From: an uncultured Clostridium sp.
GTDB lineage: Bacteria; Bacillota; Clostridia; TANB77; CAG-508
Assembly: GCA_947087745.1 (NCBI GenBank)
Contig: CAMUDX010000004.1
Span: forward strand, 307 to 64,306
Direction of reading: 5' to 3'
DNA length: 64,000 nt
Position 1 is the first letter of the stretch; every line of letters starts with the position of its first letter. Below, piece by piece: positions 44,731 through 60,437 of this stretch. The notes below the pieces were generated by a model. The model ran no database searches. It worked only from the letters and a program-made list of their open reading frames with translations, and was not told where the DNA came from. Position numbers and translations under genes: made by a program.

Positions 44731-45981
44731 TTATATAATATCTTCAAAGTAATTAATATAGTTGCTAAAGAACATATAAAAATAATCACTAATACTTCTT
44801 TTATCTATGGTAAATAAATTATAAAAATCAAGAGAAAATATAATTTTATTATCAACAATTATATCAACATTACCAATTTTAGAATCTTTGTAAAAAGGTG
44901 CATCAAAATTAAATGTTGCTGTGATATCAGTAGAAATGGTATCTATATTTTTATTCACGGGATAATAATCATAAGGCAATTCAGGCAAATACACATCAAT
45001 ATTTGAATTTGAACATTTATCCACATTAAATCTATTCAAATTATTAATCTTCCAATTTTCAAAATCCTTCATAATTGGCTCTTTGATATTCATCATTTTA
45101 AAATTACTAAAAGCATATTCTATAAGCTTTACACTATCTTGAGTTCTAAATTTTTTAGTATCAGCCCCCAAGACAACGCAAATAACATCTAAATCACCTC
45201 GTTTACATGATGAAACCAAACATCTATTAGCACCATTTGTAAAACCTGTTTTAACACCATAAACACCATTTAAATTACCCAATAATTCATTTGTTGAATG
45301 TATATTTTTAGGACTACCATTTATATAAACAGTATAATTCGAAGTGCCAACAAGTCTACAAAATGTTTCATTTTCTAAGGCATAGTTAGTTAATAAAGCA
45401 AGTTCGTATGCAGTAGTATGATGCTCATCATCATCTAAACCATGAGGAGTAACAAAGTGAGTGTTTGATAATCCCAAAAGTTTAGCCTTTTCATTCATTA
45501 AATTTGCGAAATTTTCTACACTACCACCAATATGTTCTGCTAAAGCAATAGCAGCATCGTTACCAGAGCACAACATCAATCCATATAGTAAATCATTCAC
45601 AGTAACTTTGCAATTTGTGGAAAGACCCAACCTAGATCCATGGATTCTAGCAGCTTTACTAGACACAGTTACAATATTTGATAAATTTTTTTCATTTTCT
45701 ATAACTATAATGGCAGTCATTATTTTAGTAGTAGAAGCCATTTTCCTAACATCTAATTCATTTTTACCAAATAAAATTGCACCAGTCGAACGTTCTATAA
45801 CAACAGCAGATCTGCAATTAATATTTGGCAGAGAAGAGACAGAAGAAGAAGTTACAATAGAATTAACATCTACAAAATCATCTATAGGCTCTATATAATC
45901 ATCTGCGAAACAACATGTTGGTAATATGGTTATAAGAGATAATAAAACAATAAAACAAATAATTTTTTTAGAAAAAAACAT
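44731..45981 (-). CDS. D-alanyl-D-alanine carboxypeptidase (peptidase S11), second paralog
   Basis: ASTTK, SGN and KTGFT motifs, with a signal peptide. The ATG at 45981 follows AGGTGA; the GTG at 45990 is an alternative start. Confidence 0.88.
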   Translation of the reverse strand: MFFSKKIICFIVLLSLITILPTCCFADDYIEPIDDFVDVNSIVTSSSVSSLPNINCRSAVVIERSTGAILFGKNELDVRKMASTTKIMTAIIVIENEKNLSNIVTVSSKAARIHGSRLGLSTNCKVTVNDLLYGLMLCSGNDAAIALAEHIGGSVENFANLMNEKAKLLGLSNTHFVTPHGLDDDEHHTTAYELALLTNYALENETFCRLVGTSNYTVYINGSPKNIHSTNELLGNLNGVYGVKTGFTNGANRCLVSSCKRGDLDVICVVLGADTKKFRTQDSVKLIEYAFSNFKMMNIKEPIMKDFENWKINNLNRFNVDKCSNSNIDVYLPELPYDYYPVNKNIDTISTDITATFNFDAPFYKDSKIGNVDIIVDNKIIFSLDFYNLFTIDKRSISDYFYMFFSNYINYFEDII

Positions 45982-46001
45982 AATAGTCACCTGTACAATT
46001 A

Positions 46002-46034
46002 TATGTCATAGGGACGTGTTTTTTGACACACTTT
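46002..46034 (-). promoter_or_regulatory. conserved leader motif, copy 2 (AAAAGTGTGTCAAAAAACACGTCCCTATGACATA on the minus strand), upstream of the dac gene
   Basis: See 27077..27111. It has the same orientation relative to its downstream gene and ends 20 nt before the ATG. Confidence 0.5.
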
Positions 46035-46216
46035 TAATATTTAATTTAAAATTTTTATAACAATGTATTTATACAATGGATTATATAATTCAAAATATAA
46101 AAGATATTTTGAAAACTTAATATTCTTCTGCACTAAAAGAGTATATAGGGATGACGTTCATATTACTAATCCGTAACATTAAAAGATTCGGAAAAAATCA
46201 CATAAACACTTGAAAA

Positions 46217-46266
46217 TGTAATGAAAATGTAATATAATTGTAATGCGTTTGTAATATTAATGTAAC
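46217..46266 (+). promoter_or_regulatory. array of five direct TGTAA(T/C) hexamers with exact 11-bp phasing (fits the WalR/OmpR-family half-site consensus TGTWAH-N5-TGTWAH)
   Basis: TGTAAT at 46217, 46228, 46239 and 46250, and TGTAAC at 46261. The array lies in the divergent intergenic region between the dac gene and the first adhesin gene. Confidence 0.55.
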
Positions 46267-46362
46267 ATTATAAAACGAATAAACTTTACAAGAAAATCAT
46301 AAATAATAAACTCTTATAAAAATAAAGAGCATAAAATAAATACTAATTAAGGAGAAGCGAAA

Positions 46363-49300
46363 ATGAAATTACAAAAATTAATACAAAAATTGATAGCAAG
46401 TTTGCTATTAACAATAATAGTAATTAATAATTTAGAAGGGTTAAAAATTGTAACTGATGCAATAACAATAAATAGTAAAGATGGAGATAACTTGCATCTG
46501 GGATTATCTGCTGTAGGAAATGGCATAGGATATGGAATAGACATGACATCAAGTGGAACTGAAGGGAAATACATATGGAATATAAAATCATATGAGACAG
46601 CTTCAGCAAGTAGTAATTCAGTGGTAACATCTAATTTATATTGTATAAAAGCAGGTTTTGGGTATACATGGGAGAACTTAAAACAACCAAATGCAGTATT
46701 AACATATGACCAATCAACATTTAATGAGAATACAGTAGATGGATATTATAATGAGATATTATGGATAATAGACCATATGTATATTCCACAAGAAGACAAT
46801 AAAGAAAAATTCTTAAAATCTATAGGAATTGAACTATATGAAGATGCAGAGTATAAGTTATATTACTACAATCCAGATTTAACACCAGAATATGATTATA
46901 CAGACTTATCAAGTGGAAACGAATATGCATATACACTAACAGATGATGACATAGTTGCAGTACAACAAGCAGTAATATGGTATTACACAAACTATAAAGT
47001 AAATCCATCAACATATGGAATATATAATAAATTAGGAAAGAACTCATCATGGCTAAAATACACAACAAATGGAACAAATTATTCCGAATTGAGTTCATTA
47101 AATAGAACATCAGGAGAGGGACCAGCAAGGAATGAATTTGCGACTATACTATATAATTACTTAATAGATGCTGCAACAAAAGAAGTAGCAAAAGCAGGAG
47201 GAACATATAAGTTAAAAAATAATACAGTAAAATTATGGACAGCAACAACATATGGAAATCAAGAACAACCAATAATAGAAGTACACAAAAAACAAAAGAT
47301 AGGAGAATATGATTTAATATTAGTAAAAGAAGATGAAAATGGAGAACAATTAAACAGTACAGCAACATTCATAGTAAATGATGTAGAAAAAGTAGTAACA
47401 GGGAAATTAACAGTAGCAAGTAAGGTGCAAATAACAGAAAGTAATTTAAATAGAACAGACACATATATAATAAAAGAAAAAATACCACCAGATGAATACT
47501 GCGAATTTAATGGAATAATAATGGTATCAGTAACAAAGAAAGAGACAGCAGATGGATATGAAGTAGACCAAGTAACATATGTAGTAAGAGATGAAGAGGG
47601 AAATGATATAACCCAAGAAATAGGAGATACAGTAAAAGTATATTTAAAAGATGGAAACATATATGTAAAAGTAAAAAACTACCCAGAAGAGAAAGCATTT
47701 GATTTAGCATTAAGAAAAGTAATAACACAAGTAAAAGATGCAGAAGGAAATATAAAAAGAATAGTAGATGCAAATGGAAACAGTGCTACAAGAAATGTAA
47801 CAGTAGATACAAGTACATTAAACAATGAAGATGACAATAGAAATACAGACACAGCAACATATAGACACAGAAAAGACCCAGTGCTAGTAGAAAAAGGAGA
47901 TAAAGTAAAATACACAATAACAATATACAATGAAGGAGAAGAAGCAGGATATGCAAGAAAAATAGTAGACCAATTACCAGGAACATGGGGAGCAGGACTA
48001 AGACTATTAAGTACAGCAGATGTAACATCAACAACAGGAAATGTATATGCAGTAGAATATAGTACAACAACAAATAAAGTAACATTCACATTAAAAAGTA
48101 CATCACCAAGAGAAATACCAGCATATAATGGAAAAACATTATCAAAAGAAACAATAGAATTAGAATGTGAAGTAATGGCAACAGCAGACAGGTCACAAAA
48201 CATGACATTAACGAATATAGCATATATAGCAGAAGAATACAATAGCAAAACAAATCAAGTAATTACAATAGAAGGAGACAGAGATTCACAGCCATCAAAA
48301 TACCCAACATATAATGGAGAAAATGATATAACACAAGATGGAATAACATATGGGGAAGACATAGGATATAAAGGACATAAGAGTAATTCATCTATTTTAT
48401 CACAAAACGATACATATTATAAAGGAGAAGAAGATGATGATGACTTTGAAAAAGTAGTAATATTACCAGAAGCAAAAGAATTTGATTTAGCATTAAGAAA
48501 ATTCATAACAGAAATAGAAGAAACAGGAGTAAACGAGAACAAGAAACCAAATGAAGAAATAACAAAAACGAAGGTAACAAGTAGAATACCAGAAGTAAGT
48601 TATAACAAAGAAACAAACCAAATAACATACACCCATAGCAAAGCCCCATTAGTAGTACATGTAGGAGACACAGTAATATATACAATAAGAGTATATAATG
48701 AGGGAGATATAGCAGGATATGCAACAGAAATAACAGATGATATACCAGAATATTTAGAATATTTACCAGAGCATGAGACAAATGAAAAATATGAATGGAA
48801 GATGTATGACAAAGAAGGAAAAGAAACGAAAGATGTAAGAAAAGCAGTAAAAATTAAGACAACACATCTAGCAAAAGGAGAAGGAGAAGAAAAAGGAGCG
48901 ATATTAGGAAGTAGCAAATATACAGCAAACTTAATAAAAGCATTTAATCCAAAAGCAGGAATAAGTGGGACAAATCCAGACTATAGAGACATAAAAGTAG
49001 CATTCAAAGTAAAAGACCCATCTTCATCAGAATATGTAATAACGAACTTTGTAGAGATATCAGAAGACAGTGATGAATACGGAGACCCAATAAAAGACAA
49101 AGATTCAATACCAGGAAATGGAGAAGGATATCCAAAAGAAGATGATGAAGACATAGAAAACATAAGAGTAGAATACTTCGATTTAGCATTATTAAAATAT
49201 GTAACAAAAGCAATAGTAACAGAAGAAGGAAAAGAAACAGTAATAGAGACAGGGAATATAGGAGACGAAAATGATATAATACCAAAAGTAGAAATAAACA

Positions 49301-49794
49301 GAAAGAAAATAAAACAAACAGTAGTAAAATTTGCATATACAATAAAAATAACAAACGAAGGAAATATAGCAGGATATGCAACAGAAATAACAGACTATAT
49401 ACCAGAGGGATTAGAATTTAAGAAAGAAGATAATGAAAACTGGGAAGATGAAGGAAACAGAGTAATATCAACAAGACAATTAGAGAAAGTGTTATTACAA
49501 CCAGGACAAAGTGCAGAAGTAGAAGTAGTACTAAGATGGGTAAATGAAGAGAATAATTTAGGATTAAAGAGAAACACAGCAGAAATATCAGAAGACTATA
49601 ATGAAAAAGGAATACCAGATAGAGATTCAACACCAGACAACCAAAAAGAAGGAGAAGATGATATAGACAATGCAGAAGTAATATTATCAATAAAAACAGG
49701 AGGAGAAGTAAACAGAATATACTATAGCTTAGGTATAGTAGTGTTATTAATAATATCAACAGGAATAGTGTTAATAAAGAAATATGTAATATAG
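46363..49794 (+). CDS. surface adhesin paralog A (1143 aa): signal peptide, thioester-domain (TED)-like head, SpaA/CnaB-like domain, DUF11-like repeats and a C-terminal TM anchor
   Basis: LYCIKAG (Cys94) and QQAVIWYYTN (Gln202) resemble the TED motifs [YFL]C-psi-[DNE] and TQxA-psi-W. Four repeated FDLALRK...Y(T/K)I.(I/V)(Y/T)NEG..AGYA..I.D..P modules are followed by D(R/K)DS.P(S/G/D) segments, and three end in (E/D)DD acidic motifs. The C-terminus is hydrophobic. Confidence 0.8.
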   Translation: MKLQKLIQKLIASLLLTIIVINNLEGLKIVTDAITINSKDGDNLHLGLSAVGNGIGYGIDMTSSGTEGKYIWNIKSYETASASSNSVVTSNLYCIKAGFGYTWENLKQPNAVLTYDQSTFNENTVDGYYNEILWIIDHMYIPQEDNKEKFLKSIGIELYEDAEYKLYYYNPDLTPEYDYTDLSSGNEYAYTLTDDDIVAVQQAVIWYYTNYKVNPSTYGIYNKLGKNSSWLKYTTNGTNYSELSSLNRTSGEGPARNEFATILYNYLIDAATKEVAKAGGTYKLKNNTVKLWTATTYGNQEQPIIEVHKKQKIGEYDLILVKEDENGEQLNSTATFIVNDVEKVVTGKLTVASKVQITESNLNRTDTYIIKEKIPPDEYCEFNGIIMVSVTKKETADGYEVDQVTYVVRDEEGNDITQEIGDTVKVYLKDGNIYVKVKNYPEEKAFDLALRKVITQVKDAEGNIKRIVDANGNSATRNVTVDTSTLNNEDDNRNTDTATYRHRKDPVLVEKGDKVKYTITIYNEGEEAGYARKIVDQLPGTWGAGLRLLSTADVTSTTGNVYAVEYSTTTNKVTFTLKSTSPREIPAYNGKTLSKETIELECEVMATADRSQNMTLTNIAYIAEEYNSKTNQVITIEGDRDSQPSKYPTYNGENDITQDGITYGEDIGYKGHKSNSSILSQNDTYYKGEEDDDDFEKVVILPEAKEFDLALRKFITEIEETGVNENKKPNEEITKTKVTSRIPEVSYNKETNQITYTHSKAPLVVHVGDTVIYTIRVYNEGDIAGYATEITDDIPEYLEYLPEHETNEKYEWKMYDKEGKETKDVRKAVKIKTTHLAKGEGEEKGAILGSSKYTANLIKAFNPKAGISGTNPDYRDIKVAFKVKDPSSSEYVITNFVEISEDSDEYGDPIKDKDSIPGNGEGYPKEDDEDIENIRVEYFDLALLKYVTKAIVTEEGKETVIETGNIGDENDIIPKVEINRKKIKQTVVKFAYTIKITNEGNIAGYATEITDYIPEGLEFKKEDNENWEDEGNRVISTRQLEKVLLQPGQSAEVEVVLRWVNEENNLGLKRNTAEISEDYNEKGIPDRDSTPDNQKEGEDDIDNAEVILSIKTGGEVNRIYYSLGIVVLLIISTGIVLIKKYVI

Positions 49795-49987: not shown

Positions 49988-50031
49988 CTTATTCTCCAGT
50001 GAGCGGGAATTCCCGCTCACTGGAGAATAAG
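49988..50031. repeat. 44-bp perfect palindrome CTTATTCTCCAGTGAGCGGGAA|TTCCCGCTCACTGGAGAATAAG
   Basis: 22+22 nt with no mismatch. The GC-rich core is AGCGGGAATTCCCGCT. Confidence 0.95.
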
Positions 50032-50256
50032 AGGTTTTATAAAAATATATAGTAATGTAAGGAACACTCCCATAACACATGATACATAAAAGTAAAGAAA
50101 AAGTAAAGAAAATGTAATATAAAGAAAGAAATGCCTAAAAGGAACTTCCGTAAGTTGCTAATAAGCCATTAAGATTAATAAAGAAATCTATTAAAAATAG
50201 TATATTGACTAAGGAAAAATAAATAGTAAAATATAATTATAAGGAGAGATAATTAT

Positions 50257-53200
50257 ATGGAACTACAAAAAATACTAAAGAAATTAATAGCAAGTCTGCT
50301 ATTAACAATAATAATAATAGGACAAATGAGTGGTTTGCGATTTGAAACAGATGCAACAACTATAAGAAGTTCAGGAGAACATTTATATCTGGCTCTGTCT
50401 GCACTTAGACAAAGTGGAATGGGATATGGAATTGACATGGATGCAAATGGAACAACAGGAAAACAATTATGGGGAATTAGGTCGTATGAAACAGCTTCAG
50501 CGAGTAGTAATTCAGTTGTGGCATCTAACTTGTACTGTATAAAAGGATCATATGGGTACACTTGGGAAACTTTGGGTAGACCAACAGATGTGTTAACATA
50601 TAGTCAATCATCAGCAAATTTAAGTACAATAGTTCAATATGCAAATGAGTTATTATGGGTAGTAGATCATATGTATGTTCCAGGAGAAATAGATAAAAAC
50701 AAATTTTTAGAGCAAATAGGAATAGAATCATATGATGATTCAGGCAATAAGCTATATTACTACAATCCAGACTTAACACCAGGATATGATTATACAGACT
50801 TATCAAGTGGAAACGAATATGCATATACACTAACAGACGATGATATAATAGCTATACAACAAGCAGTAGTATGGTATTACACAAACTACAAAGTAGATTC
50901 ATCAACTTATGGAATATATAATAAATTAGGAAACAATAGTTCATGGTTAAAATATACAACAAATGGAACAAACTATTCAGAATTAAGTTCATTAAATAGA
51001 ACAACAGGGGAGGGACCAGCAAGGAATGAATTTGCGACTATACTATATAATTACTTAATAGATGCTGCAACAAAAGAAGTAGCAAAAGCAGGAGGAACAT
51101 ATAAGTTAAAAAATAATACAGTAAAATTATGGACAGCAACAACATATGGAAATCAAGAACAACCAATAATAGAAGTACACAAAAAACAAAAGATAGGAGA
51201 ATATGATTTAATATTAGTAAAAGAAGATGAAAATGGAGAACAATTAAACAGTACAGCAACATTCATAGTAAATGATGTAGAAAAAGTAGTAACAGGGAAA
51301 TTAACAGTAGCAAGTAAGGTGCAAATAACAGAAAGTAATTTAAATAGAACAGACACATATATAATAAAAGAAAAAATACCACCAGATGAATACTGCGAAT
51401 TTAATGGAATAATAATGGTATCAGTAACAAAGAAAGAGACAGCAGATGGATATGAAGTAGACCAAGTAACATATGTAGTAAGAGATGAAGAGGGAAATGA
51501 TATAACCCAAGAAATAGGAGATACAGTAAAAGTATATTTAAAAGATGGAAACATATATGTAAAAGTAAAAAACTACCCAGAAGAGAAAGCATTTGATTTA
51601 GCATTAAGAAAAGTAATAACACAAGTAAAAGATGCAGAAGGAAATATAAAAAGAATAGTAGATGCAAATGGAAACAGTGCTACAAGAAATGTAACAGTAG
51701 ATACAAGTACATTAAACAATGAAGATGACAATAGAAATACAGACACAGCAACATATAGACACAGAAAAGACCCAGTGCTAGTAGAAAAAGGAGATAAAGT
51801 AAAATACACAATAACAATATACAATGAAGGAGAAGAAGCAGGATATGCAAGAAAAATAGTAGACCAATTACCAGGAACATGGGGAGCAGGACTAAGACTA
51901 TTAAGTACAGCAGATGTAACATCAACAACAGGAAATGTATATGCAGTAGAATATAGTACAACAACAAATAAAGTAACATTCACATTAAAAAGTACATCAC
52001 CAAGAGAAATACCAGCATATAATGGAAAAACATTATCAAAAGAAACAATAGAATTAGAATGTGAAGTAATGGCAACAGCAGACAGGTCACAAAACATGAC
52101 ATTAACGAATATAGCATATATAGCAGAAGAATACAATAGCAAAACAAATCAAGTAATTACAATAGAAGGAGACAGAGATTCACAGCCATCAAAATACCCA
52201 ACATATAATGGAGAAAATGATATAACACAAGATGGAATAACATATGGGGAAGACATAGGATATAAAGGACATAAGAGTAATTCATCTATTTTATCACAAA
52301 ACGATACATATTATAAAGGAGAAGAAGATGATGATGACTTTGAAAAAGTAGTAATATTACCAGAAGCAAAAGAATTTGATTTAGCATTAAGAAAATTCAT
52401 AACAGAAATAGAAGAAACAGGAGTAAACGAGAACAAGAAACCAAATGAAGAAATAACAAAAACGAAGGTAACAAGTAGAATACCAGAAGTAAGTTATAAC
52501 AAAGAAACAAACCAAATAACATACACCCATAGCAAAGCCCCATTAGTAGTACATGTAGGAGACACAGTAATATATACAATAAGAGTATATAATGAGGGAG
52601 ATATAGCAGGATATGCAACAGAAATAACAGATGATATACCAGAATATTTAGAATATTTACCAGAGCATGAGACAAATGAAAAATATGAATGGAAGATGTA
52701 TGACAAAGAAGGAAAAGAAACGAAAGATGTAAGAAAAGCAGTAAAAATTAAGACAACACATCTAGCAAAAGGAGAAGGAGAAGAAAAAGGAGCGATATTA
52801 GGAAGTAGCAAATATACAGCAAACTTAATAAAAGCATTTAATCCAAAAGCAGGAATAAGTGGGACAAATCCAGACTATAGAGACATAAAAGTAGCATTCA
52901 AAGTAAAAGACCCATCTTCATCAGAATATGTAATAACGAACTTTGTAGAGATATCAGAAGACAGTGATGAATACGGAGACCCAATAAAAGACAAAGATTC
53001 AATACCAGGAAATGGAGAAGGATATCCAAAAGAAGATGATGAAGACATAGAAAACATAAGAGTAGAATACTTCGATTTAGCATTATTAAAATATGTAACA
53101 AAAGCAATAGTAACAGAAGAAGGAAAAGAAACAGTAATAGAGACAGGGAATATAGGAGACGAAAATGATATAATACCAAAAGTAGAAATAAACAGAAAGA

Positions 53201-53688
53201 AAATAAAACAAACAGTAGTAAAATTTGCATATACAATAAAAATAACAAACGAAGGAAATATAGCAGGATATGCAACAGAAATAACAGACTATATACCAGA
53301 GGGATTAGAATTTAAGAAAGAAGATAATGAAAACTGGGAAGATGAAGGAAACAGAGTAATATCAACAAGACAATTAGAGAAAGTGTTATTACAACCAGGA
53401 CAAAGTGCAGAAGTAGAAGTAGTACTAAGATGGGTAAATGAAGAGAATAATTTAGGATTAAAGAGAAACACAGCAGAAATATCAGAAGACTATAATGAAA
53501 AAGGAATACCAGATAGAGATTCAACACCAGACAACCAAAAAGAAGGAGAAGATGATATAGACAATGCAGAAGTAATATTATCAATAAAAACAGGAGGAGA
53601 AGTAAACAGAATATACTATAGCTTAGGTATAGTAGTGTTATTAATAATATCAACAGGAATAGTGTTAATAAAGAAATATGTAATATAG
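50257..53688 (+). CDS. surface adhesin paralog B (1143 aa). The TED-like head is diverged from A. From codon 252 onward it is identical to A.
   Basis: It has the same motifs (LYCIKGS, QQAVVWYYTN). By eye the first ~251 aa are about two-thirds to three-quarters identical to A. The remainder is identical. Confidence 0.8.
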   Translation: MELQKILKKLIASLLLTIIIIGQMSGLRFETDATTIRSSGEHLYLALSALRQSGMGYGIDMDANGTTGKQLWGIRSYETASASSNSVVASNLYCIKGSYGYTWETLGRPTDVLTYSQSSANLSTIVQYANELLWVVDHMYVPGEIDKNKFLEQIGIESYDDSGNKLYYYNPDLTPGYDYTDLSSGNEYAYTLTDDDIIAIQQAVVWYYTNYKVDSSTYGIYNKLGNNSSWLKYTTNGTNYSELSSLNRTTGEGPARNEFATILYNYLIDAATKEVAKAGGTYKLKNNTVKLWTATTYGNQEQPIIEVHKKQKIGEYDLILVKEDENGEQLNSTATFIVNDVEKVVTGKLTVASKVQITESNLNRTDTYIIKEKIPPDEYCEFNGIIMVSVTKKETADGYEVDQVTYVVRDEEGNDITQEIGDTVKVYLKDGNIYVKVKNYPEEKAFDLALRKVITQVKDAEGNIKRIVDANGNSATRNVTVDTSTLNNEDDNRNTDTATYRHRKDPVLVEKGDKVKYTITIYNEGEEAGYARKIVDQLPGTWGAGLRLLSTADVTSTTGNVYAVEYSTTTNKVTFTLKSTSPREIPAYNGKTLSKETIELECEVMATADRSQNMTLTNIAYIAEEYNSKTNQVITIEGDRDSQPSKYPTYNGENDITQDGITYGEDIGYKGHKSNSSILSQNDTYYKGEEDDDDFEKVVILPEAKEFDLALRKFITEIEETGVNENKKPNEEITKTKVTSRIPEVSYNKETNQITYTHSKAPLVVHVGDTVIYTIRVYNEGDIAGYATEITDDIPEYLEYLPEHETNEKYEWKMYDKEGKETKDVRKAVKIKTTHLAKGEGEEKGAILGSSKYTANLIKAFNPKAGISGTNPDYRDIKVAFKVKDPSSSEYVITNFVEISEDSDEYGDPIKDKDSIPGNGEGYPKEDDEDIENIRVEYFDLALLKYVTKAIVTEEGKETVIETGNIGDENDIIPKVEINRKKIKQTVVKFAYTIKITNEGNIAGYATEITDYIPEGLEFKKEDNENWEDEGNRVISTRQLEKVLLQPGQSAEVEVVLRWVNEENNLGLKRNTAEISEDYNEKGIPDRDSTPDNQKEGEDDIDNAEVILSIKTGGEVNRIYYSLGIVVLLIISTGIVLIKKYVI

Positions 53689-53881: not shown

Positions 53882-53925
53882 CTTATTCTCCAGTGAGCGG
53901 GAATTCCCGCTCACTGGAGAATAAG
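53882..53925. repeat. 44-bp perfect palindrome (duplicate of 49988..50031)
   Basis: Identical sequence inside the duplicated block. Confidence 0.95.
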
Positions 53926-54138
53926 AGGTTTTATAAAAATATATAGTAATGTAAGGAACACTCCCATAACACATGATACATAAAAGTAAAGAAAAAGTAA
54001 AGAAAATGTAATAACAAAAAGCAAATGCTAGAAATAAATATCCGTAAGAGCTACAAAGTAATGGAAAAACCTGTGAAAAACAACATATTGACTATAAATA
54101 AAGAAAGTGTAAAATATATATTATAAGGAGAGAAAAGT

Positions 54139-56877
54139 ATGGAACTACAAAAGATAATGCGAAAATTTATAGTCAGTTTAATATTATCTATGCTAGTTAT
54201 ATGTCAGGTAGAATTTAATTTAAGTTCAAACGGTACAAATGCAAATAAAGGACAAGAAACACAACAAGACGAAGAACAACGTACACAGCAAAAAGTACAA
54301 AGCCAACAAAACCAACAGACCATAGAGCTAGACAATGAATTCAATTTAGCATTAAGAAAAGTAATAACACAATTAAAAGACAAAGAAGGAAACACAAAAG
54401 AAATAGTAAATGAAATAAAACAAACAGCAAAAAGAAACGTAGTAGTAAATAAAGAGAATGAAGAATTAATATATAGACATAGAAAAGACCCTGTATTAGT
54501 AGAAAAAGGAGATATTGTTATATATACAATAACAATATATAACCAAGGGAAAGAAGAAGGATATGCAACAAAAATTGTAGACCAACTACCAGGGACACCA
54601 ATGACAGGATTACGATTATTAAATACAAAAGAAGTAAAATCAACAACAGGAAACATATACACATTGGAATATAGTACAGCCACAAATACAGCAACATTTA
54701 CACTAAAAAGCACAAGTCCAAAAGCTATACCAGCATTTAATGGAAGACAATTATCAAAAGAAGAAATAATATTAGAATGCCAAGTAATGGCAGATATAAA
54801 TACCAGAGAATCAACAATATTAACAAATATAGCATATATAGAAGAAGCATATAACAAAAAGACAAATGAAGCAGTAATAATGTATGAGAATAATGACTTG
54901 CAAGGATTGACATCTCCTATATATCAAAATGAGGATGACACAAAGCAAGATGGAATAACATATGGAGATGATATAGGATATATAGGGAATACAGATAACT
55001 TAACAGATTTATCTCAAAGCAAAACATATTATAAAGGACAAAAAGATTGCGATGACTTTGAAAAGTTAATAATATCACCAAAATTATTTGATTTAAGCTT
55101 AAGACAAGTAGTAACAGAGATAGATGGAATACCAACAGAAGAAAATAGAAAAATAACAATAACAGGATTAGAAGATTTACAAGAGGAAAATTCAATAGTA
55201 ACAACAGCACAGTATAATCATGTAAAAACACCTATAGTTGTAAAAAATGGAAGTAAAGTAACATATAACATAAATATATATAATGAAGCATCAATAGATG
55301 GAACAGCAAGTATAGTAAAAAGTCAATTACCAATAGGCTTAGAACTAAATGTATCTAAATTATCAACACAATTAATAGATGGAAAGACACAATATTATAT
55401 AATTACAGAAAAGGGAAATAAATACATAGTACAATATGATGAGGCGAAAAATAATATAACTTTTAAGTTAGATACAACTATTGAAATTGCAAATATAGAG
55501 GCATTTAGTGCAAGAAAAACACTAGACTTTGATACATTGGAATTTGAATGTATAGTACAATGTGTAGCTGATGAAGAACAAAATACATATCTAACAAGTA
55601 TATCATATATATATGAACAACAGAAGGCAGATGGAACAATAATAACAGACCAAAAGGGTGAAGATAGAGATTCAGAGCCACATACAATATCAATAAAAAC
55701 AGCTAAGGAACTAAAAACAATAAATGATATAGGATATATAGGAAACATAGAAAATACAAGTGATTTAGAACAAGAAGAAACATATTACAAAGGAGAACAA
55801 GATGATGATGACTTTGAAAAACTAGTAATATTACCACAAGTATTTGATTTAAAGCTAATTCAATATGTAGATAAAATAAATAAAAAAGATGTAGGAGAAA
55901 GACTAATAAAAGTAGATACATCTAAGTTAAATACAACAGACGCAACAGGGAAAAAGATAACGACAGCAGAGTATGAAATGGAAAAAAATCCAGTATCCGC
56001 AAAAAGCCTAGACTTTGTAAAATATACATTTAGAGTATACAATGAAGGAGATTATGATGGATATGTAGAAGAGATATCAAGCAATATACCAGAAGGATTA
56101 GAAGCTTTAATGATAGGAAAAGATTCATCAAACAACATAATAATATATAGTTGGGATGGAATACTATTAAAAGATGTAACAGAAGAAATAAAAGCAACAG
56201 ACATGTATGATATAGTAATTGATACAAATAGTATATGGGGATATAATGCAAACAATTCAATAATAAAAACAACAAACTTAAAAGAAGAATTGATAAAAGC
56301 ATTTGGAAATAAAGATTATGAGGATTATGCAGACAAAGAGAATAAAATAGATTATAAAGAAACATCAGTAATATTTAGAGTAAAAGAAGAAATAACTTCA
56401 AGCGAAAAGACAATAGTAGTTGAATCAGCAATAACATCAGAAAAGGCAGTAAATCAAAATGGAGAAGAAGTAATAGATTTAGAAGGAAATAAAATAAAAG
56501 ATAGAGATTCAGATTGTGACCAATGGAAAAGAGAATATTCAGATTCAGTTTATAATAAAGACCAATGGAAAATATATAAAGAAGATGATGAAGACTATGA
56601 TAATATTGTAGTACAAGAGTTTGATTTTAAAGTAAGTCAATCTGTAGCAGAAGAGGAAGAAATTAATGAGCCACCAACAGTATATGTAGGAAATATAGAT
56701 AAATACACAACAGGATTATATGGTGAAGAAGAAACAGAAGATGATATTGATATTGCAGAGAATACAATATCAACAAAGACAGACGAAAGAATAAGAAAAA
56801 TATATGTTGTTTTAATATTAGTATCATGTATTATAATTATAGTTGGAGTAATTTTAATAAAAATATTTATATTATAA
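54139..56877 (+). CDS. surface protein paralog C (912 aa): signal peptide, Q-rich linker, DUF11-like repeats and a C-terminal TM anchor; no TED-like head
   Basis: The signal peptide MELQKIMRKF... and the upstream region are homologous to paralog B. FNLALRK/FDLSLRQ/FDLKLIQ modules are present. The LYCI and QQAV.W motifs are absent. Confidence 0.75.
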   Translation: MELQKIMRKFIVSLILSMLVICQVEFNLSSNGTNANKGQETQQDEEQRTQQKVQSQQNQQTIELDNEFNLALRKVITQLKDKEGNTKEIVNEIKQTAKRNVVVNKENEELIYRHRKDPVLVEKGDIVIYTITIYNQGKEEGYATKIVDQLPGTPMTGLRLLNTKEVKSTTGNIYTLEYSTATNTATFTLKSTSPKAIPAFNGRQLSKEEIILECQVMADINTRESTILTNIAYIEEAYNKKTNEAVIMYENNDLQGLTSPIYQNEDDTKQDGITYGDDIGYIGNTDNLTDLSQSKTYYKGQKDCDDFEKLIISPKLFDLSLRQVVTEIDGIPTEENRKITITGLEDLQEENSIVTTAQYNHVKTPIVVKNGSKVTYNINIYNEASIDGTASIVKSQLPIGLELNVSKLSTQLIDGKTQYYIITEKGNKYIVQYDEAKNNITFKLDTTIEIANIEAFSARKTLDFDTLEFECIVQCVADEEQNTYLTSISYIYEQQKADGTIITDQKGEDRDSEPHTISIKTAKELKTINDIGYIGNIENTSDLEQEETYYKGEQDDDDFEKLVILPQVFDLKLIQYVDKINKKDVGERLIKVDTSKLNTTDATGKKITTAEYEMEKNPVSAKSLDFVKYTFRVYNEGDYDGYVEEISSNIPEGLEALMIGKDSSNNIIIYSWDGILLKDVTEEIKATDMYDIVIDTNSIWGYNANNSIIKTTNLKEELIKAFGNKDYEDYADKENKIDYKETSVIFRVKEEITSSEKTIVVESAITSEKAVNQNGEEVIDLEGNKIKDRDSDCDQWKREYSDSVYNKDQWKIYKEDDEDYDNIVVQEFDFKVSQSVAEEEEINEPPTVYVGNIDKYTTGLYGEEETEDDIDIAENTISTKTDERIRKIYVVLILVSCIIIIVGVILIKIFIL

Positions 56878-57826: not shown

Positions 57827-58780
57827 ATGTTACAAGAAATATATATTATCGATGATGATGATTCTTCGATTGCAGTATTTAGAGAACTATTCAAAAATGA
57901 AGAAAATTATAAATTTACAAATATAAAATCAGAACAAATAGATATAGCATTAAAAAATATACCGTCATTAATAATTATAAATGAAGATGCGATACAAAGA
58001 GATATAATAGAATTATGCCATCAGATAAGACAAGATGAAGACAATACAATAACACCAGTTATAGTAGTCTCATCCAATAAAGAAAAAGAACACAGAATAA
58101 AGATATTAAATGAATCAATAGAATATTATATCAGAAAACCCGTAGATGAAGACTATTTGTTTTATACAATAAAAAATTTAGGTAGATTATTATCAATAAA
58201 CAGAACAATAAGTCCACTAACAGGATTGCCAGGAAATGTACAGATACATGCTGAACTAAAAAAGAGATTATCAAATAAAGAAGAATTTGCAGTATTGTAT
58301 TTAGATTTAGATAATTTTAAACCATACAATGATGTATATGGATTCTTAAAAGGAGATCAAGTAATACAGTATACTGCAGAAGTAATATTAAGCAGTATAC
58401 ATAGCAATGATACTAAAAACAATAAAAGTAGCAATAGTTTTGTTGGGCACATAGGTGGAGATGATTTTTTAGCTATAGTACCATATGTAGATGTTGATGA
58501 ATTATGCCAAATAATAATAGGAACTTTCGATAAAGGAATAAAGAACTTTTTTAGTAAAGAAGATTTAGAAAAAGGATATATAGAAAGCGAGAACAGAAAG
58601 GGAAATATAGAAATATTTCCAATAACAGGAATTTCAATAGGAGTAGTTATTGCAGAAAAGGATAGATTCACTAATATACTAGAGATTTCTGAAGTAGGTA
58701 CACAGGTAAAACATTTAGCAAAATCAATACAAGGAAGTAGTTATGCAATAGACAGAAGAAAACATAATAGATCAGTATAA
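57827..58780 (+). CDS. response-regulator receiver domain fused to a GGDEF-type domain with a variant GGDDF motif
   Basis: REC-like N-terminus (IIDDDD..., VVSS, IRKP). PLTGLPGN...LDLDNFKPYNDVYGFLKGDQV...GHIGGDDFLAIV is the GGDEF fold. Confidence 0.75.
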   Translation: MLQEIYIIDDDDSSIAVFRELFKNEENYKFTNIKSEQIDIALKNIPSLIIINEDAIQRDIIELCHQIRQDEDNTITPVIVVSSNKEKEHRIKILNESIEYYIRKPVDEDYLFYTIKNLGRLLSINRTISPLTGLPGNVQIHAELKKRLSNKEEFAVLYLDLDNFKPYNDVYGFLKGDQVIQYTAEVILSSIHSNDTKNNKSSNSFVGHIGGDDFLAIVPYVDVDELCQIIIGTFDKGIKNFFSKEDLEKGYIESENRKGNIEIFPITGISIGVVIAEKDRFTNILEISEVGTQVKHLAKSIQGSSYAIDRRKHNRSV

Positions 58781-60367: not shown

Positions 60368-60437
60368 TTTTTTATTTTAGCTTTTTTTCTAGTCAGCGGG
60401 AATTCCCGCTGACTAGAAAAAAAGCTAAAATAAAAAA
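60368..60437. repeat. 70-bp perfect palindrome with the same AGCGGGAATTCCCGCT core as 49988..50031
   Basis: 35+35 nt checked base by base, with no mismatch. The centre lies between 60402 and 60403. Confidence 0.95.

Follow-up and report, generated by a model that had tools for sequence, protein, structure and literature searches.

Five head-to-tail copies of the hexamer TGTAAY, repeated every 11 bp, lie across the promoter of a thioester-type adhesin gene in the genome of an uncultured Clostridium sp. Judged by comparison with related genomes, this array (positions 46217-46271) is a real conserved operator, and the description that fits it best is that of a WalR box variant with multiple half-sites. 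Together with its counterparts elsewhere in the genome, it probably serves an OmpR/PhoB-family regulator, the most likely reader being a WalR (YycF/VicR)-like protein encoded on another contig.

Hexamers repeated head to tail every 11 bp are the signature of the winged-helix OmpR/PhoB regulators. To this family belongs WalR of the WalRK system, which is a drug target and the only two-component system that is essential in Bacillota. The direct regulon of WalRK has been poorly charted beyond Bacillus, staphylococci and streptococci.

Throughout, the window is the whole stretch of 64,000 nucleotides that was analysed, and window positions are counted from its first letter. It corresponds to C4:307-64306 of a 1.68 Mb genome in 72 contigs with a GC content of 27.2%. 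The organism belongs to an uncultured lineage of gut Clostridia, and its relatives are deposited as Clostridium sp. CAG:389, CAG:343 and CAG:575 together with many MAGs. DNA of the window recurs in mouse gut metagenomes. A search of public runs for RNA evidence of the adhesin transcription start returned DNA-type assemblies only, with even contig coverage in which 5' ends were not seen.

The array at the adhesin promoter

Direct reading places TGTAAT at 46217-46222, 46228-46233, 46239-46244 and 46250-46255, and TGTAAC at 46261-46266, all on the + strand. The register is exactly 11 bp, four times over. An earlier, sequence-only reading of this DNA had given these hexamer positions, their shared strand and their spacing, and all of them proved exact. 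The array comprises five 11-bp units, TGTAATGAAAA TGTAATATAAT TGTAATGCGTT TGTAATATTAA TGTAACATTAT (46217..46271, + strand; direct read, pattern search and shuffles), with the spacers GAAAA, ATAAT, GCGTT and ATTAA between the hexamers. Position 7 is A in three of the five units and G in the other two. A search with the WalR-type pattern TGTWAH-N5-TGTWAH returns four overlapping matches at 46217-46266, which bears out the claim that all five hexamers fit this rule.

The presumed regulated gene is adhesin gene 1 (46363..49794, + strand), which encodes a protein of 1143 aa with a thioester TED domain and DUF11 repeats, and whose start codon lies 97 bp past the array. On the other side, a divergent DD-carboxypeptidase gene of the Peptidase_S11 family (44731..45990, - strand) starts ~227-235 bp from the array, the likely ATG being at 45981; it is a possible second target of the 46217-46271 array. 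We sought a promoter for it in the intergenic region and found no convincing one, and an Rfam scan of the intergenic region holding the array gave zero matches. Both flanking genes are thus as the sequence-only reading had identified them.

A predicted sigma-A-type promoter, TTGAAA (46210-46215)-17-TATAAT (46233-46238), points toward the adhesin gene (46210..46238, + strand; score 11/12). Its -35 box abuts unit 1, with the array beginning 1 bp after it, and its -10 box sits in the spacer of unit 2, so that the array spans roughly -30 to +25 with respect to the predicted adhesin promoter. In all four species that have the locus, TTGAAA or TTGATT and TATAAT are in register with the array. The earlier description of the array as upstream of the adhesin gene therefore needs qualifying: it does lie between the two genes, but it is not merely upstream, as it overlaps a conserved promoter. 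Separately, we considered TGTAATATAAT as a general extended -10 element and rejected this, as the intergenic regions hold just six copies and the 5-mers commonly found ahead of TATAAT do not include TGTAA.

A tandem repeat over the promoter of a surface adhesin is a classic phase-variation setting, and the number of units varies between species (five versus three). The array could on these grounds be taken for a contingency locus, in which slipped-strand gain or loss of 11-bp units switches the adhesin. We consider this highly improbable. The units are imperfect and each spacer is different, which disfavours slippage, and the -35 and -10 boxes lie within units 1-2, which makes promoter spacing independent of unit number. 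Additionally, contigs covering the array in three runs of one study carry zero indels, and the arrays before essential division genes keep stable unit numbers across 80 species.

Several further features of this region were recorded. The adhesin genes at 46363-49794 and 50257-53688, both encoding 1143 aa, are near-identical tandem duplicates offset by 3894 bp; of the two, only the first has a Pfam-detectable TED match and the full five-unit array. Metagenome contigs break at ~46919, the start of the adhesin duplication. Directly 3' of the three adhesin genes is an RR-GGDEF (diguanylate cyclase) gene (57827-58780), a hint that the surface is also controlled at a second level, through c-di-GMP.

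Two repeat families are also present. The first is a ~30-nt element, TGTGTCATGGGGACGTTCTTTTTGACACAC, with a GTGTCA...TGACAC stem, found at window positions 46004-46040 (genome C4:46310-46346). The genome has ~30 copies, frequently arranged in inverted pairs with 60-80 bp between the partners, and one copy lies in the 5' leader of the DD-carboxypeptidase gene, just ahead of the ribosome-binding site. The element has no Rfam match, and its depth is elevated in mouse-gut assemblies. The second family consists of long perfect palindromes with the common core AGCGGGAATTCCCGCT at 49994-50030, 53888-53925 and 60386-60425, past adhesin genes 1 and 2 and ahead of the minD region; they resemble a shared terminator or repeat family.

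Departure from random expectation

In a genome of 27% GC, pairs of TGTWAH hexamers are equally common at other spacings (31-105, against 40 at 11 bp), so base composition has to be weighed as a source of the array. The single hexamer has no intergenic enrichment (density ratio 0.96-1.00). The three-unit pattern occurs three times in the window, against 0.00 expected from 100 dinucleotide-preserving shuffles, and allowing one mismatch adds one further window match, at 60502-60529. Across the whole genome, runs of at least three TGTAAY hexamers are found at period 11 only, as three runs of three and two runs of five, with none at periods 7-10 and 12-15. Tolerating one or two mismatches gives 10 loci in the genome at period 11 and 0-1 at each other period.

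These results and the cross-species conservation described below refute a chance product of an AT-rich genome, to which we assign a negligible probability. In the genome scan with TGTWAH-N5-TGTWAH that the sequence-only reading had proposed, pairs are not enriched at 11 bp; runs of at least three TGTAAY are confined to that period. The special feature is the multi-unit phased arrangement and not the hexamer itself. That reading had also named, as grounds for abandoning it, phased arrays at the frequency expected from base composition; the arrays found are period-specific, intergenic and phylogenetically conserved.

Arrays elsewhere in the genome

In-phase extension gave 16 candidate arrays in the genome, 15 of them intergenic, and we put the number of such arrays at about 15; the coding fraction is 86% of the genome by a crude ORF-based gene call. 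The genes behind arrays include ftsA, sepF, minD, rsmD, veg and the divergent nrdD/crp-like pair. Others are a SAF-domain (CpaB-like) gene heading a pilus-like operon, a conserved 305-aa gene of unknown function, and genes for three kinds of large surface protein, namely the TED/DUF11 adhesin, an NPCBM/F5_F8/dockerin protein and a 2938-aa protein. None of the phosphate-uptake genes adjoins an array in the genome's array list, and the M23 peptidase and mreB genes of this genome are without a strong array.

Four of the additional arrays are in the window. Two degenerate three-unit arrays on the + strand share the form AGTAAA-N5-AGTAAA-N5-TGTAAT: one, at 50091..50118 (direct read; 11-bp tandem repeat), lies upstream of adhesin paralogue 2 (50257-53688), with a promoter-like TTGACT-16-TAAAAT ~90 bp downstream of it, and the other, at 53985..54012 (sequence read), lies upstream of adhesin-like gene 3 (54139-56877). 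A four-unit array on the - strand (CGTAAA, TGTAAT, TGTAAT, TGTATT; 60502..60540) ends ~20 bp upstream of the minD promoter, TTGACT-17-TATTAT. A weak three-unit array (TTTAAC, TTTAAC, TGTAAC; 9756..9783, + strand), 40 bp ahead of the 1591-aa NPCBM/F5_F8/dockerin gene, is the lowest-scoring member and may be of chance origin. With a minD/ParA-family gene as neighbour, a plasmid-type centromere or iteron was also considered; it was rejected, as the arrays are chromosomal, there are many of them, and 80 species keep one ahead of ftsA.

The arrays of ftsA, sepF, minD and rsmD run in the opposite direction, and ~10-30 bp downstream of where they end is a TTGACA-type -35 box, itself at about -67 to -77 from the start codon. 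A different layout was seen at the crp-like gene (C30:10780-10850, outside the window), where the promoter TTGCAA-17-TATAAT gives way directly to an array of 3-4 units extending as far as the start codon; this array is also ~95 bp upstream of the divergent nrdD. With one array abutting the crp-like promoter at such a distance from nrdD, it may repress one of the two genes while activating its divergent partner.

The unit and the WalR box

In profile, the unit reads TGTAAY and then A at position 7, and positions 8-11 carry little information. Among the 54 units of this genome, T, G, T, A and A occur at positions 1-5 in 48-53 units (A at position 4 in 53) and T or C at position 6 in 52. An A stands at position 7 in 44 of the 54 units and in 207 of the 246 ftsA-array units of 80 species (81-84%). 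Relative entropy per position is ~0.8-2.9 bits at positions 1-6, compared with 0.06-0.8 in the spacers.

For Streptococcus mutans VicR, DNase footprinting and mutagenesis refined the site to TGTWAHA-N4-TGTWAHA (PMC4168254). The unit found here, TGTAAYA-N4, matches this VicR/WalR consensus of TGTWAHA-N4. The array thus has the half-site hexamer of a WalR box, its 5-nt-spaced direct repeats, its position-7 A and its location in the promoter of an envelope gene. It departs from the box in the number of half-sites, which is two per site in the latter; five contiguous ones here and 3-5 at other loci of the genome agree with the earlier remark that five is far above the usual two. The difference is one of architecture and not of recognition.

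The profile also bears on whether a protein is needed at all. Phased A/T tracts, curved DNA or UP-element-like contacts with the alpha subunit could in principle boost promoters, and the ftsA, minD and sepF arrays do lie just upstream of consensus -35 boxes, with spacers that are A-rich in the direction of the gene (ACAAAAATATTACAAAAAT), like phased A-tracts. We judge such a protein-independent structure to be very improbable. The conservation sits in the G/C-containing hexamer and not in the spacers, and the spacers of the window array are not A-tracts. Furthermore, both orientations occur, arrays are also found downstream of promoters (adhesin and crp-like), and identical hexamer arrays exist at 45-54% GC.

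Conservation in relatives and across the order

The footprint set comprised 80 related species fetched by FtsA, with 71-97% amino-acid identity. All 80 have an ftsA array of 4-5 in-phase units on the strand opposite to ftsA, with the fixed promoter sequence AAAATATAACA-AATTCTA-TTGACA-17-TATATA at a constant distance after it. Across these species, the hexamers hardly vary and the 4-5 spacer bases drift, which makes this a classical phylogenetic footprint of a sequence-specific protein.

Nearly every ftsA promoter (L001-L080; genome C29:7960-8020) has an extra TGTAAT in the opposite orientation, directly before the -10 box (AAAATGTAATATATATA). The offset of this extra hexamer from the -35 box equals that of unit 2 in the window array.

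The array of the window is found in fewer relatives. It has five units in the closest relative (L081) and three in L145 and L104; in L145, the divergent DD-carboxypeptidase/adhesin pair is again present together with its three-unit array. Among 51 loci of DD-carboxypeptidase homologues, the array is kept in the closest relative and one other only. As it is this rare, it appears to travel with the adhesin-side promoter or with the gene pair and not with every Peptidase_S11 gene.

Three genomes of the same genus have arrays ahead of veg, the 305-aa gene, nrdD and ftsA, and additionally ahead of mreB and an M23 (LytM-type) peptidase gene. Across the order, exact triple arrays were found in 97 of 151 sampled genomes, with up to 21 per genome, compared with 0-2 for a reversed-pattern control in the 151 genomes. 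The ftsA promoter varies between families: in the host's own family, there are 4-5 units and a consensus -35 box, and in a sister family (f3), a canonical two-unit box lies ~20 nt upstream of a weak ftsA -35 (TTGATT). In family f2, the gene for the candidate regulator is present and arrays are absent.

Arrays in other Clostridia

Among Clostridia outside the order, we found exact triple arrays, 1-3 per genome, in 32 of the 241 genomes; reversed controls gave zero. Twenty such loci were fetched from genomes of 36-54% GC, picked irrespective of gene content. The adjoining genes identified with Pfam encode a DUF348-G5-3D protein of the YocH/YabE type, a Peptidase_S11 DD-carboxypeptidase, an SH3-NlpC/P60 endopeptidase, a LysM-G5-M23 peptidase and two Amidase_3 amidases. 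MreB is next to an array at five loci (one checked with Pfam and four read by eye), as are SLH surface proteins at another five (two checked with Pfam and three read by eye). In L154, from another Clostridia family, a Peptidase_S11 gene has its own array.

On these annotations, the neighbours of arrays outside the order are a textbook WalR-type regulon, which ties the motif to wall homeostasis in the class. The suggestion that the genes flanking the window array are plausible envelope targets is borne out by this, as arrays in other Clostridia precede Peptidase_S11, NlpC/P60, M23, Amidase_3, 3D-domain, MreB and SLH genes.

A candidate regulator

The genome has only four OmpR-family genes. Two of them adjoin BceAB-type ABC transporters, and a third encodes a PhoB-like regulator (C19:32448-33134) with the recognition helix SRTIDSHIKKIRHKL. 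The fourth, at C28:9037-9798 and outside the window, encodes a WalR-like regulator whose best NCBIfam model is YycF, with 311.3 bits, which is below the equivalog cut-off of 340 bits. In PDB, the top five matches to its DNA-binding domain are VicR/WalR/YycF-like without exception (E ~1e-33), and the next family member follows at 5e-24. Its recognition helix, RTVDVTVRRIREKIE, differs from RTVDVTVRRLREKIE in the solved domains solely by I for L; a longer comparison sets DIRTVDVTVRRIREKIE against DVRTVDVTVRRLREKIE in PDB 2d1v, 2hwv and 2zxj. A helix of this type is conserved in families f1-f5 of the order.

The gene for the partner kinase (C28:7704-8852; 382 aa, with one N-terminal membrane segment and a PAS domain) is upstream of that of the regulator. 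The kinase scores 334 bits against WalK, for which the cut-off is 725, and 331 against PnpS, for which it is 400. The pair (C28:7704-9798) is flanked by murG-like and polC/dnaE-like genes, unlike the walRK-yycHIJ layout. Of the features that define WalRK, we find a WalR-type recognition helix on an OmpR-family regulator, and we miss the walR-walK gene order with yycH/I/J-type genes, an extracytoplasmic sensor kinase and scores above the equivalog cut-offs. Given the scores below cut-off, the kinase-first order and the short kinase, orthology of the C28 pair to WalRK is not established. The WalR-like gene is present in 150 of the 151 genomes of the order, and a regulator that is nearly universal, including in the array-free f2, cannot be linked to the motif by co-occurrence.

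This leaves room for another reader, either the PhoB-like C19 regulator or an unrelated tandem-repeat factor, with WalR uninvolved or only sharing the sites. Both the gene order of the WalR-like pair and the architecture of its kinase are atypical, and the regulator occurs without arrays in f2. In addition, the targets (veg, nrdD, rsmD and adhesins) exceed wall hydrolases and are not classical WalR ones, and arrays of several units are seen more typically with PhoP-type regulators than with WalR. We nevertheless hold another reader to be rather unlikely. The C19 helix is unlike the WalR type, the phosphate-uptake genes are without an adjoining array, and the T or C found at position 6 in 52 of 54 units disagrees with a Pho-box reading, which needs A. 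The motif, including the A at position 7, matches footprinted VicR sites, and arrays in other Clostridia precede classical WalR-type targets. We therefore retain the WalR-like C28 protein as the probable reader, on the strength of its helix and of the motif.

Proposed mechanism

In our model, the phosphorylated regulator would bind head to tail, with one winged-helix domain per 11-bp unit, and would occupy the units cooperatively, in the manner of other family members at complex operators. The arrays found here resemble such operators in consisting of at least three contiguous 11-nt direct repeats, some of them degenerate, in a promoter region. A precedent comes from Streptomyces, where PhoP occupies operators with as many as six 11-nt units in a cooperative manner, starting from conserved core units (PMC2275107).

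The direction of regulation can be proposed from position. In Staphylococcus aureus, WalR sites upstream of the -35 box are associated with activation, and those between or downstream of the -35 and -10 boxes with repression, in any orientation (PMC10746227). By this rule, the adhesin and crp-like promoters would be repressed, and ftsA, sepF, minD and rsmD, where the array has the geometry of activation, would be activated. Repression is the likelier mode at the adhesin gene because the array overlaps its conserved promoter; an occupied array would occlude RNA polymerase. We accordingly lean, if only slightly, toward the adhesin gene being repressed through the array. Its activation from an unrecognised downstream promoter appears doubtful. 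An active wall-growth signal would then switch the division genes on and the adhesin off.

Evolution and significance

At 27% GC, dimer-sized A/T-rich sites are indistinguishable from background, and we infer that expansion into arrays is a plausible route to specificity. It is conceivable, though we put it forward only tentatively, that the WalR operator was re-engineered in this order from a two-half-site box to arrays of 3-5 units, and that the regulon was widened into a growth-coupled master circuit. Such a circuit would switch on ftsA, sepF, minD and mreB, and would shut off or tune the thioester adhesins, the pilus-like operon, the giant surface proteins and nrdD.

The arrays also have practical value. 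A consensus search in Clostridioides difficile gave little resolving power, and the long arrays described here stand out from background, so the whole direct regulon could be read from sequence in hundreds of uncultured gut species. Should WalR be the reader, wall-growth signalling would be wired directly both to cell division and to the display of adhesins and pili in Clostridia that are abundant in the mouse and human gut, and the arrays would be a case of an operator whose architecture has adapted to an extreme base composition. Should the reader be another protein, a new regulator that acts globally on division and surface genes is still to be discovered.

Comparison with known systems

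PhoP and WalR are close paralogues, and the Pho boxes of Bacillus subtilis PhoP consist of at least four TT(A/T/C)ACA repeats at 11-bp periodicity, upstream of the -35 box. They share with the arrays the 11-bp phase and a high number of half-sites, and the hexamers are related when read on the other strand, RTTACA here and TTHACA there. They differ in that the Pho box needs A at position 6, where the arrays have T or C. Unlike the B. subtilis Pho regulon, the set described here has no phosphate-regulon targets, and the helix of the genome's PhoB-like regulator is different.

The class III PHO operators of Streptomyces coelicolor PhoP likewise have up to six 11-nt units, some of them degenerate, and an OmpR/PhoB-family reader (PMC2275107). 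The unit sequence, the regulator, the phylum and the phosphate signal are different, and cooperativity is known for PhoP (PMC2275107) and inferred for the arrays.

We found no relevant report of multi-unit WalR arrays in Clostridia in the literature searched. The WalRK of C. difficile is clostridial, follows the same site rule and has a regulon that reaches envelope genes beyond hydrolases (PMC9210968). Its sites were predicted with TGTWAH-N5-TGTWAH, giving 29 exact intergenic matches; among the regulated genes that were discussed, predicted sites were noted for just a handful, and multi-unit arrays were not reported (PMC9210968).

WalR/VicR/YycF sites in general remain the closest match. Described sites are pairs of half-sites, occasionally two separate pairs, whereas the arrays have 3-5 contiguous half-sites, and the hexamer TGTAAY is narrower than the WalR rule. 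The targets in this genome are mostly ftsA, minD, sepF, veg, nrdD, pilus and adhesin genes, while those of WalR are classically autolysins, and the operon of the presumed regulator has the kinase first and no yycHIJ-type partners nearby, unlike walRK. In common with WalR/VicR/YycF sites, the arrays have the same hexamer in direct repeat, the 11-bp register and the position-7 A, and they occur on either strand. In both, whether a gene is activated or repressed appears to depend on where the site lies with respect to the promoter, and the targets of the arrays in relatives (peptidoglycan hydrolases, DD-carboxypeptidase, and division and morphogenesis genes) are those that WalR/VicR/YycF also has.
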